Shown here: positions 906 to 54,982 of the stretch, in pieces
Layout of the letters: each line of letters starts with the position of its first letter
How positions within the stretch are numbered: the stretch's first letter is position 1
Origin: Eledone cirrhosa
Taxonomy: Eukaryota
Assembly (NCBI GenBank): GCA_964016885.1
Contig: OZ024755.1
Span: 12,772,001-12,836,000 of the forward strand
DNA length: 64,000 nt
Reading direction: 5' to 3'
The notes under the pieces: model-generated
What the model saw: only the letters and a program-made list of their open reading frames with translations
Database searches by the model: none
What the model was told of the DNA's origin: nothing
Translations under genes and position numbers: made by a program

Positions 906-1096
906 AGGCGATACCCTCTGATGAAGCCACATACGCCGCAGGAACTAATATAGGCACCCGTTTTACGGGTGTTGTATTGAAGCGAATAACTATGTGTATA
1001 CTCTGGGAATGTATCCTACATTGCCTATTGAGTACGCTGAGATACAACCGGTCCTGGCATTGATAAATATGCTGGGTCCGTCAACTCCTTATTATT
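906..1096 (+). mobile_element. (TA)n-flanked short element with degenerate hammerhead 5' core and TTGAGTAC motif
   Basis: CTGATGA at about 918 and TTGAGTAC at 1028-1035, bounded by TA/CA repeats. No clean GAAA half-core. Confidence 0.4.
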
Positions 1097-1126
1097 TATA
1101 TATATATATATATATATATATATAAT

Positions 1127-1177
1127 AATTAGCCGTCAAAACGGCTTGAGCTCAGCCGTCGGGGTCCTACTCGTTCC
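1127..1177 (+). mobile_element. Family-1 hammerhead-element fragment in (TA)n
   Basis: aattagccgtcaaaacggcttgagctcagccgtcggggtcctactcgttcc matches the arms at 15676-15725, 47098-47148 and 47901-47951. Confidence 0.8.
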
Positions 1178-1783
1178 TATATATATATATATATATATAA
1201 ATGTATATATATGTATTCATAGTCAACCTATGAACCTTTCATGCCAACCTCGTGTGTGTGCGTGCGTGCGTGCGTGCGTGCGTGCGTGCGTGCGTGCGTG
1301 CGTGCGTGCGTGTGTGTGTGTGTGTGTGCATGCGCGCATGTATGTGTGTTTGTGTGTGTACGTGTGTTTTTATGTATGTGTTTTGTGGCATTTGTTGCAG
1401 CTCTTTACGTTTAGAGTACAATTTCTACTTATCTCAACTTTATCTTTCATCCATAAAGTACTAGTCAAGTACTGGCGTCGATTTAAACGAATTTCCCATC
1501 CCCTTCAAATTCCCGACATTGTGCTTAACATCGAAGCTATTATTCCATTGACTTCACACAAATTTAATTCAATCCTTATTTTAGAGTTAAGTGGCTGAAT
1601 ATTCCTTCGCGTAAACGCCAGCCTCAATCAGCTTAACACTTTGTAACCAGACCGGACATTGAAATTATATACACAGTCCAAGTGACAGACTTTCAGTTTC
1701 TGCCCACTCAATTTTATCATGAGGTTTAGTTTGCCTCCAGGCTTTATTAGTAGTCATATGCTTTAAGATACCACACAGCGATA

Positions 1784-2365
1784 ATGTTGGTGGTGGTGGT
1801 GATGGTAGTGGTTTTGATGGTTTTGATAGTGTTGGTGGTGGTGATGGTAATGGTTTTGATAGTGTTGGTGTTGGTGATGGTGATGGTAGTGGTGGTGGTG
1901 GTGTTGATAGTGTTGGTGGTGGTGGGTGGTGATGGTTTTGATAGTGTTGGTGTTGGTGGTGGTGATGGTTTTGATAGTGTTGGTGTTGGTGGTGGTGATG
2001 GTAGTGGTGGTGATGGTAGTGGTGGTGTTGATAGTGGTGGTGGTGGTAGTGGTGTTGATAGTGTTGGTGGTGGTGATGGTAGTGGTGTTGGTGGTGGTGG
2101 TGGTGGTGGTGATGGTAGTAGTTTTGATAGTGTTGGTGTTAGTAGCATTGGTGTTGGTGGTTGTCTTAATGGTTGTATTGGTAGCTGAGATGGTGATGAA
2201 CTTGGTGTTGATGTTTGTGTTGTTAGTTGTGTTGGTGGTTACGATGGTGTTGGTGTTGGTGGTTACGATGGTGTTGGTGGTTACGATGGTGTTGGTGTTG
2301 GTGGTTGTGTTGGTGGTTGTGTCGGTGGTTGTGTCGGTGGTTGTGTTAGTGGCTGTGGTAGTGAT
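1784..2365. repeat. (GGT/GAT/GTT)n compound trinucleotide low-complexity tract
   Basis: Directly visible. Confidence 0.9.
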
Positions 2366-2901
2366 GTGTGCGAGTGCATATTGGTTCTCCGTCTCTTCAC
2401 ACAGATACACATTCATGAACACACACACACACACACACACACACACACACACACACACGCGCGCGCGCGCGCGCGCGCGCGACGGCTTCCACAGAGTTTC
2501 CGCCTATCAAATTCCAATTATAATACATTGATCCTTCAAAGGCTATAAAGTAGAAGATTCTTGCCGAAGATTCCACTTCGTAGGAGTGAACCGAAAGCCA
2601 CGGGGCTATTGCGAGCTGATTTCCTTGACCACACACCCATACTGTGATGTCCAAAAAAAACTATTTGAAGCCGGAAATCCCAACAAGTGTTGTAGACTGT
2701 CCACCTGGAACCGAGCTGTTGATCAATTAAGTTCATTAAATCCGTTTGTTTTTGTATTAATGTCTAACATGGAGGAACGGCGTTGATTAAATCAACCCTA
2801 GTACTTAACTAGTACTTTATCTTATCGATCCGAGAAGGGCGAAAGACTAAAATTGACCTTGGCGGGGTTTGAACTCAGAATGTAAAAGGCCAGAACAAAA
2901 A

Positions 2902-3083
2902 ATTGTTTCTTCTTTTGGCACAAGGCCAGCAATTACCCAGTACATTATTGGTACTTTATTTTATCGACCCCGTAAGGATGAAAGGCAAAATTAACCTCGA
3001 CAGGATTTGAACTCAGATAGTAAAGTGACGTAACTATGCTGGAAAGCATGTCCGACCCTCTACCGATACTGCCAATTTACCGC
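2902..3083 (-). mobile_element. tRNA-derived SINE, family A
   Basis: Reverse complement carries A-box-like TGGCAGTATCGGT, B-box GAGTTCAAATCC, the shared body and the tail GGCCTTGTGCC. A partial copy lies at about 2783-2885. Confidence 0.85.
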
Positions 3084-52444: not shown

Positions 52445-52541
52445 GGCAGGACAAAAACCTTTCCGTTCATCAGCTACATGTACCGGGCGGCCTCTGTATA
52501 AGAGGCTAATGAACGGAGAAGTTTGTTTGTTTTGTCCTGCC
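52445..52541. repeat. Imperfect inverted repeat between (TA)n tracts
   Basis: ggcaggacaaaa..tccgttcatcagc versus gctaatgaacgga..ttttgtcctgcc. Inner hairpin gcctct/agaggc. Confidence 0.7.
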
Positions 52542-52613
52542 CTCCAACTTGGAATAACGCTATAACATTTAATAACGCTGACAGTCATTCTCTTCTCTGA
52601 TTTCTTGTCTGAC

Positions 52614-52967
52614 TATATATATATATATATATATATATATATATAATGTGTGTATATATATATATATATATATATATATATAATGTGTGTATATATATAT
52701 ATATATATATATATATATAATGTGTGTATATATATATATATATATATATATATATAATGTGTGTATATATATATATATATATATATATATAATGTGTATA
52801 TATATATATATATATATATATATATATAATGTGTGTATATATATATATATATATATAATGTGTGTATATATATATATATATATATATAATGTGTGTATAT
52901 ATATATATATATATATATAATGTGTGTATATATATATATATATATATATATATATATATATATATAA
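52614..52967. repeat. Higher-order (TA)n-ATGTGTG array
   Basis: About 9 units of aatgtgtg(ta)n. Confidence 0.95.
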
Positions 52968-53170
52968 AATGTTTACATCGTGTTTCTTTAGAAATACGAA
53001 ATTTCTATACATATCCGTATACAGATATGCCTGAAACTAAATCCTAATTTTGTGTGTGTGGGTGTGTGGTGTGTGGTGTGGGTGTGGTGTGTGGTGTGGT
53101 GGGTGGGTGTGTGTGTGGGTGGGTGTGGGTGTGTGAGGGTGGGGGGGGGGGGGTATGTGCTGTGTAAGTA

Positions 53171-53514
53171 AACACCTGCAACCCTGATGGTATCCAATGA
53201 TGTTGACTTGTTCTTCTTTTTGGTAAATATTATCTTGGTTAAGAGAGTGGGACTGGCTTTGTGCAGTGCCTTTGCTCACTATAAAACCTTCACGACACAG
53301 GCATTGCTTTGTATCTGGAGATCTCTCTGCACTTGTCACATGGTACCATGACCCCAGCACTATGTGTCAATAATTGTCACAAGTGTAGTGTTTGTACCAG
53401 AGTTTTCAAGTCGTTGGCTTGACTAAAAAGTCACACTCGTTCAGCGCATCGGTAGGGGTTCTCCTACATGGATATAAAGTAGTGGCCGTACTCGAAAACG
53501 AGTTGGCAGCCACC
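53171..53514 (+). mobile_element. RTE-derived element, copy 3 (5'-truncated)
   Basis: CSVCTRVFKSLA*LKSHTRSAHR* at 53384-53455. Same 3' end gcagccacc-atatat as the other copies. Confidence 0.72.
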
Positions 53515-54654
53515 ATATATGTATGTATGTATGTATGTATGTATGTATGTGTGTGTATATATATATATATATATATATATATATATATATATATATATAC
53601 ATACATACATGCATAATACCTACATATATACATGCATATATTTATGAATGCATGTGTATATAATATAGATATATTTAATCTTTCTGAATACATTTGACTG
53701 TGTAAATGTATATGATTGAACCCTTCAAAACTATAGAGACACCAACTACGTTACATGCGAAAGTTATAAATATTAAACCCGGCATGACCCCCAAGCAATC
53801 TATTCAATACGAAATGACCTTGTACTTATATTCACCAAAAACTATTGGATTGCTAAATGACGTAGTATGCCACTGGTATTGTTTACTAAACATTATATAA
53901 TTTCTACTTAATATTTATACGACTATATTTGTAATTTCTCATACGTATTATGTTTCATTGAGGTAATGTATATACAAAGCCCACGCTATATGTGTAAATA
54001 TATATATATATATATATATATATATATATATATACATATATATATATTCATACATGTATGTTTAGCAGGGAAATCTGACGTTAAACGATAGTGATGATGT
54101 ATATATAATATATATATATATACATATATATATATGCATATATATATATATATGCATATATATGTATATATATGTATATATATATATATATATATATATA
54201 TATATATATGTATATATATATATATATTCCTTTAGACTGGTGGCCATGTATGTCGTCATAATATAAGTTTGTTGTTTTGAGGCCTTTACGTCAATAAGCA
54301 ATTTCAAAGGCTTGGGATAATGTCCAGAAATATGCATGCATATCTATACAAATAAAACTAATGTACAAAAACACAGACGGTGTTACGAACATTTTGACAT
54401 CAAGAAATAAATGAGAAATATAAAGTGAAGTCAAAAACTAATGTATATCAGATTTCAGCGTGGCGGTAGTTCGTATGTTTACGTACATTTTATGTATATA
54501 AGTATATATATATTAAAATATTTGCTCTACGGTTCTTACATATTTGATATATATTTATCCTTATCGAGCCCTCTTTGGATTTTAGTCTTCAAATTTATTA
54601 TTATTACTATATATATATATATATATATATATATATATATATATATATATATGC

Positions 54655-54982
54655 AGATGTTATATTTAATTTGTTGGGATTCCAACAAACTTAAAGGTTT
54701 ATAACTGATATAGAGCACTCAACAGAAACTGAAGTAAATATTCAATATATGAATAAATGGAAACTATATTTATAAAACCATATTATTTTATTATATATTT
54801 TATTATATATCCAGCAAATTTTCAACCGTCAAGGTTCTTTTCCATGGCTATGTCACTATTTATAAAACAAATTTTGTATTTAACCTGATGAAAGCGCACC
54901 ATGACTGCCTTGGTTGCCCTTGAAATATATATAATAAAATAATATGGTTTTATAAATACAGTTTCCATTTATTAATATATTG
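54655..54982. mobile_element. Family-4 element with inverted arms and a + strand hammerhead core (54885-54930)
   Basis: CTGATGA aagcgcacca-loop-tggttgccctt GAAA tata. Arms at about 54745-54800 and 54923-54982. Confidence 0.68.

Follow-up and report, generated by a model that had tools for sequence, protein, structure and literature searches.

The window analysed here, a 64,000-nucleotide (nt) stretch of the Eledone cirrhosa genome (assembly GCA_964016885.1, contig OZ024755.1, positions 12,772,001 to 12,836,000), contains many small elements that lie in (TA)n microsatellites and share the octamer YTGAGTRC. This octamer makes up the 3' strand of a bulged hairpin (H1) with covarying pairs, of the form RCTC-[variable helix]-(1-2 nt bulge)-GAGY-RC. 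Judged by the protein motif hallmarks of Craig et al. (2021, PMC8557442) rather than by placement in a reverse transcriptase (RT) tree, the elements are Penelope-like retrotransposons (PLEs) of the Hydra clade and apparently non-coding relatives of these. Such elements carry the hairpin twice (H1 and H2), between the hammerhead ribozyme and the start codon, and each copy probably docks the RT, copying starting 2-7 nt 5' of it.

A preliminary description of the window had taken the shared octamer as a cis-signal. The notion of a cis-signal stands, but the octamer is only half of the hairpin, and variants with a G-C outer pair (GCTC/GAGC) escape the pattern. At each copy listed there, an ACTC upstream (ACTT in one) pairs with GAGT, the "YT" forms a bulge of 1-2 nt and an inner helix follows, whose sequence and length vary from family to family. 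In 99 random loci (all random-locus samples were drawn from the same genome, 3.0 Gb), 61 of the 142 matches to a generalised hairpin descriptor were followed by a TA junction; seven control stems and the reversed sequence gave 4-11 of 76-199. The outer pair, compared across 18 sequence clusters, was A-T in 13, G-C in four and A-A in one, and in none was it A-C or G-T (Fisher p 4e-4, kinship among clusters not corrected for). Of 23 hairpins that we chose by hand in 13 families, 21 have the outer stem closed in the minimum free energy (MFE) fold; four types of first inner pair occur among them, and the central pair co-changed in two cases (CTC/GAG to CAC/GTG and to CCC/GGG). The H2 of family E (loci L227, L228, L239) has an insert of ~80 nt in its inner helix, and the fourth base of its GAGY is T or C opposite T; since long inner inserts are also found in the H1 of families F and M, the inner length seems to be free. 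No Rfam family matched the window at the gathering threshold, and the best 150 matches by E-value were of microRNA type, on palindromes and repeats.

All eleven positions listed for the motif are indeed present (the low coordinate being given on the minus strand), including the variant CGAGTGC at 27311. YTGAGTRC occurs 19 times in the window, where 2.8-6.4 occurrences are expected (Markov orders 1-4). Fourteen of these are inside small (TA)n-flanked elements, among them four family A copies absent from the list (30333, 40415, 46968 and 47978), and the remaining five lie elsewhere (10750, 18466, 35717, 45887 and 56063). The one at 10750-10757 (CTGAGTGC) is part of another dispersed repeat, also seen at L087, L089 and L228, and is a chance match to the pattern with neither stem nor junction. 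A distance to the microsatellite of about 30-75 nt had been proposed; we measured 36-77 nt for nine of the eleven sites, and 23 and 24 nt for those at 26153 and 26278. The enrichment in position and strand was found both in random loci and genome-wide. In 59 random 10-kb loci, a microsatellite followed 15-100 nt downstream of 18 of the 41 motifs and preceded only four (background 12%); with the upstream ACTY stem present, 15 of 19 motifs were at junction distance, and with the stem absent 3 of 22. Across the genome, the motif followed by TA was counted 66,409 times and TA followed by the motif 9,771 times (2,455 and 3,523 in reversed controls), on the strand that counts each motif once, a strand choice that is our own reading of the listings. 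From these counts we take the bias in position and orientation to be real. One 26-mer alone has 31,473 exact copies.

The elements had been described as unrelated, which proved wrong: the eleven sites belong to eight families, and all those linked to an open reading frame (ORF) fall in one PLE clade. They are not a single diverged family of uniform similarity either. The flanks around H1 gave just two marginal cross-family blastn matches (E 0.045) and no clear nucleotide similarity, and the proteins are ~25-52% identical between families, which makes them old relatives. Long copies of A, B, E and X run into a Hydra-type ORF at several loci each. The open frames of A and X have 784 amino acids (aa), with YRDD and a C-terminal endonuclease (EN), while that of E is partial; a Pfam search of family X gave no RT or GIY-YIG match, so that its RT/EN assignment rests on motifs. 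RW[KR] and DK[TS] are found in A, RWK and DKT in X, RWR and DKT in B, and RW[KR] in D, E, K and N; the EN regions of A, E, X and J have the CxCX5C linker and the CxxC and CxH flanking conserved E and N. Insertion in (TA)n, a tandem or inverted pseudo-long terminal repeat (pLTR) structure and a tail, likewise Hydra-type features, are present as well. Full-length family A has both the Hydra ORF and H2, and at L220 and L221 (G000:C1:437.20 Mb and 91.48 Mb) at least five near-identical full-length A units form head-to-tail arrays with a period of ~3.53-3.54 kb and open frames of 784-786 aa. Both A and X seem to have been active recently. An apparent joining of family A to the family X ORF at L045 was discarded as mere adjacency.

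Families F and G, in contrast with the coding ones, look non-autonomous from their sequences. The F units (2.4-2.6 kb, three loci) and the G unit (842 nt, one locus) gave no Hydra tblastn match, and the one F unit that was translated has no ORF above 90 aa, and both families keep the hammerhead, H1 and H2. Flanked by pLTRs and devoid of a detectable ORF (L298-L301 and L302), they resemble retrozymes; F also carries internal repeats.

The position of the two hairpins relative to the insertion ends is what points to their role. Each family has two ends, a tail-less one (P) and a tailed one (T), with P a few nt 5' of H1 and H1 itself inside the tail. H2 was first seen in families X, M, K and N, just past T in tandem X copies and before the ATG in K and N. 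Predicted beforehand, it was then found in six out of six further families with a read-through copy, in strict form in A, E, D and F, as a reduced CAC/GTG form in B and as a probable CCC/GGG form in G; the descriptor matches by chance at 26 of 4000 positions (0.65%) when strict and at 87 of 4000 (2.2%) when relaxed. H1 and H2 are spaced by 68-113 nt, and in six coding families another 20-63 nt separate H2 from the ATG. End mapping used 261 of the 309 sequences after de-duplication. Among the TA-joined 3' ends placed on seven family references, 223 of 243 lie within 9 nt 5' of H1 or H2, as do 72 of 83 in the subset from random loci and the window; the commonest offsets range from -2 to -5 at P and from -2 to -7 at T, with microhomology counted into the element. 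Just 25 of the 269 TAT/ATA words in the references are inside these end zones, and therefore microhomology alone does not choose the site. The signal does lie near the 3' junction as had been described, but what stays constant is how far it is from the insertion ends on its 5' side, not from the TA junction on its 3' side, and it occurs not once but twice per element.

How one enzyme could make both ends is suggested by the Poseidon element PAc of Anolis carolinensis. According to the text of Frangieh et al. (2024, PMC11167929), its RT begins copying at two internal positions of an unprocessed RNA, one at either boundary of the tail, longer 3' extensions leave the product unchanged, and a dimer is predicted. 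By analogy, a read-through tandem RNA of the Hydra-clade elements would be used uncut. The GIY-YIG EN would nick both strands of the (TA)n target, and each 3'-OH would prime internally, helped by 1-4 nt of TA microhomology. The RT bound to a hairpin would place its active site a few nt upstream, where microhomology accepts the nicked target, so that one cDNA would begin before H1 and the other before H2. Head-to-head joining of the two cDNAs would then leave an inverted arm and a tail with H1 and without H2, and the two internal starts fixed by H1 and H2 would be the origin of the PLE tail. The distance from motif to 3' junction would vary because it is set by the H1-H2 spacing, while the distance to P stays fixed; H2 would not be copied into truncated insertions, hence one motif per window element and a junction distance specific to each family. 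Among the functions suggested in the preliminary description (RT recognition or priming, 3' processing, a promoter element), RT recognition or priming is the best.

Several observations weigh against docking of the RT at the hairpins. The set of 243 ends was enriched by fetching based on the motif, and 20 of these ends fall outside the zones, some at offsets of -10 to -15 in B, D and K; in family C the inverted arm ends ~16 nt from H1 (offset taken by eye). Several hairpins are weak, the outermost pair is mismatched in 6 of the 23, whose choice by hand is a further reservation, and the MFE fold lacks the stem in the H1 of X and the H2 of M. Family X is very young and abundant although its hairpins are weak (-2.3 and -0.2 kcal/mol), and the H2 of family B has no inner helix. 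The ORF links of D (at L238), J, K and N come from one locus each, that of M is only probable, and C and H have none; no read-through copy of H was found when such copies were sought, and those of G were two, both degenerate. Six published Hydra consensi include three with a clear hairpin, one with an imperfect one and two without a clear one. The contigs of one RNA run (share 0.06) map outside the hairpin region. Lastly, genomic ends cannot separate internal priming from cleavage of the RNA at the same site.

That last point is the basis of the main rival, by which the hairpins define the 3' ends of the RNA, which would be cut by a nuclease of the host or of the element, or would terminate, shortly (a few nt) before each hairpin, and the RT primes there by ordinary target-primed reverse transcription. 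The genomic footprint would be the same, but we regard this as rather unlikely given that the related PAc initiates internally on uncut RNA, with no change of product when the 3' extension is longer (in the text of Frangieh et al., 2024, PMC11167929). The other explanations fit less well than docking of the RT. The hairpins might act in DNA, as single-stranded cDNA or an extruded intermediate, being recognised or cut by the GIY-YIG EN, which would resolve the insertion and leave the tail. Craig et al. (2021, PMC8557442) attribute the tail to EN-mediated resolution, the D. virilis tail is needed for EN recognition (as cited in Frangieh et al., 2024, PMC11167929), and three outermost A.C mismatches become G-T wobbles on the antisense strand. 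We give this little credence, however: the internal G-T wobbles (in B, in G, in D at 54715 and in the E-like hairpin at 48356) pair on the sense strand only, Frangieh et al. (PMC11167929) equate the tail ends with RT starts in their text, and H2, lying beyond T, is absent from almost all inserted cDNAs and so must act on the template.

It is very unlikely that the hairpins are transcription or translation signals in the 5' untranslated region (UTR) of the ORF, with the ends adjoining them only via the TA microhomology of AT-rich linkers. The short distance of H2 to the ATG in the six coding families and the 1-4 nt of TA microhomology at the ends would agree with such a role, but 244 of the 269 TAT/ATA words lie outside the end zones, where only 20 of the 243 ends are found, and the apparently non-coding F and G retain both hairpins. 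An action of the motif on the upstream hammerhead, by pairing with it or by switching it, is hardly credible. ACTC/GAGT is also stem III in family G and several published Hydra hammerheads, yet A, B, E, F and H have retained H1 with stems III that are not alike, the motif covaries with its local partner strand, and pairing with the ribozyme loops is not supported, the longest complement within 300 nt upstream being 0-5 nt in 13 families.

Canonical hammerhead cores are predicted in families B, D, E, F, G, H and J. The hammerhead predicted for family A (L220, ~2140-2275) has a U3-A8 core (TTGAGAA), exact in 18 of 28 long copies and variant in the others; it has a long palindromic stem III and folds as a three-way junction. 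The location of the motif "on the ribozyme strand" is true for the element RNA but not for the genomic copies of the window. A complete CTGANGA..GAAA core lies on the genomic strand of the motif at 26898 only; at 26153, 26278, 44325 and 54715 the core is in the inverted arm on the opposite strand, half a core is found at 1028, and no hammerhead core was detected for the other five listed sites. In family G (L288) and in many Hydra elements (PMC8557442, File S2), stem III is made of ACTC/GAGT, and this sharing suggests that H1 and H2 may derive from a duplicated stem III.

Inspection by eye of published Hydra consensi (PMC8557442, File S7) indicates that Hydra-2_Amil (coral) and Hydra-2_Ajap (sea cucumber) have ends with GCTC-helix-bulge-GAGC-AC. 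Hydra-1_Ajap starts 2 nt before such a hairpin, with a second 61 nt later, before the ATG; Hydra-1_Crog (copepod) has imperfect versions and nothing clear was seen in Hydra-1_Amil and Hydra-1_Obim. As in the account of the clade given in the text of Craig et al. (2021, PMC8557442), our families have RWK, DKT, the CxCX5C linker, and CxxC and CxH around E and N, and they share a single ORF of ~715-760 aa from Met, a hammerhead, a (TA)n target and an inverted truncated arm with a tail. They differ from that account in the length of the tails (68-113 nt against 30-40), in the U3-A8 hammerhead core of family A and in having apparently non-coding derivatives. The main text of that paper does not contain the word "hairpin" and describes none. 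With PAc (PMC11167929) our families share an AT-rich target and, on the 3' side of the hammerhead, two start sites (proposed ones in our families) that delimit the tail, with a stem-loop where copying begins. PAc belongs, however, to a different clade and initiates inside one AC-rich stem-loop within the ORF, whereas in our families the conserved hairpins are in the 5' UTR, one directly 3' of each proposed start. The text of PMC11167929 describes no conserved or covarying element for PAc (0 matches in the text of the supplement).

The clade was known and these families are additions to it; the twin hairpin is a real feature, and the mechanism proposed for it is a prediction. No description of a twin hairpin was found in the open-access literature, subscription journals and Repbase notes being outside the scope of the search. 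Stringent RTs of long interspersed elements (LINEs) or R2 recognise 3'-terminal stem-loops, and telomerase RNA has RT-binding stems; the likeness is that of a small RNA structure thought to position the RT on its template. Those structures act once, at or near the RNA end or the template boundary, whereas the present hairpin is duplicated and internal, and it would not be part of the sequence copied from the adjoining start, being 3' of it.

Other PLEs of this genome end differently. Neptune-type and Poseidon-type ends have tails but no RCTC/GAGY hairpin (28 loci read by eye), so that no motif-bearing end was seen behind the CX2-5CxxC linker and CCHH endonuclease typical of the Neptune or Penelope/Poseidon clades, and the top 30 PF01541 loci gave no motif consistent within a family. 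The idea that the motif is the end of Neptune elements was rejected, the F element at L160 having inserted separately into the TA run that follows a Neptune-type end. Three Neptune-type families (L155/L160/L162, L182/L100/L116 and L109/L110-type) have two-ended tails of their own that start with ACTYGTGT, ~5 nt after the tail-less end, and this word forms a GTGT/ACAC or TGTG/CACA stem (by eye). From sequence, this stem may be a clade-specific analogue of H1. It is a fair possibility, which we put forward tentatively, that the duplicated hairpin is a portable ruler: each subunit of an RT-EN dimer would bind one copy and start its cDNA a fixed few bases upstream on uncut RNA. A pair of copies would then be enough to carry any cargo placed upstream into TA repeats, and counterparts of the hairpin would exist in other PLE clades, such as the ACTYGTGT stems.

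The RTs of PLEs are the closest relatives of telomerase, and their choice of internal start sites produces the tail that defines the class. A hairpin that is conserved, covaries, occurs twice and keeps a fixed offset to either end makes a precise mutational test possible, and young families with open frames, with insertions in the tens of thousands, are available in this genome. If the proposal is true, the hairpin would be a minimal cis-signal for a compact RT-endonuclease writing cargo into TA microsatellites, and a structural marker for the annotation of truncated Hydra elements.

The copies in the window have the architecture known from PLEs: they are 3' ends truncated at their 5' side, and often they carry an inverted arm and a tail on one side only. 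The first H1, of family G, is at 1000..1035 (+), with the motif at 1028-1035, in an element at ~907-1096 with its half hammerhead core at 918. A family A H1 follows at 15566..15591 (-), in an element (15520-15729) whose inverted arm stops 5 nt 5' of H1. The H1 of family B at 26140..26160 (+) is in an element at 25999-26183 with a shortened tail and its hammerhead core at 26035-26057 (-) in the inverted arm, and that of family C at 26278..26299 (-) in an element at ~26254-26436 with its core at 26374-26402 (+), also in the inverted arm. For family D, H1 at 26898..26919 (-) has the hammerhead core upstream on the same strand (26983-27023, -) and a TA junction at 26837. The H1 of family H at 27291..27317 (+) has a TC bulge and an inner helix of 6 bp, and its junction, at 27363, is with a TG repeat. 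A family A fragment at 30285..30349 (-), with the motif at 30333-30340, is truncated within H1, and a short copy of family B (36056 to ~36137) has H1 at 36096..36116 (-). Three H1 of family A were missing from the preliminary description: 40397..40422 (+), with its junction at 40475; 46968..46993 (-), in an element at 46922-47151; and 47960..47985 (+), in an element at 47839-48031. The H1 of family E at 44311..44332 (+) belongs to an element at 44188-44370 with the hammerhead core at 44234-44255 (-) in the inverted arm, which stops 4 nt 5' of H1. Family F is represented by an H1 with a long inner insert at 47389..47450 (-), in an element at 47312-47505. A D-like variant of the motif (TAGAGTGC) at 47649..47656 (-) has a degenerate inner helix and a junction at 47587, a variant H1 of family H with a TA bulge is found at 48094..48120 (-; junction at 48047), and an E-like subfamily has H1 at 48356..48377 (-; junction at 48320). 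The last H1, of family D, at 54715..54735 (-), has an ACTT/GAGT wobble and lies in an element at 54653-54982, with the hammerhead core at 54885-54925 (+) in the inverted arm. Between 46920 and 48430, at least six different elements (A twice, F, D-like, H, E-like and palindromic remnants) are stacked in successive TA runs, which suggests that TA tracts act as repeated landing sites.

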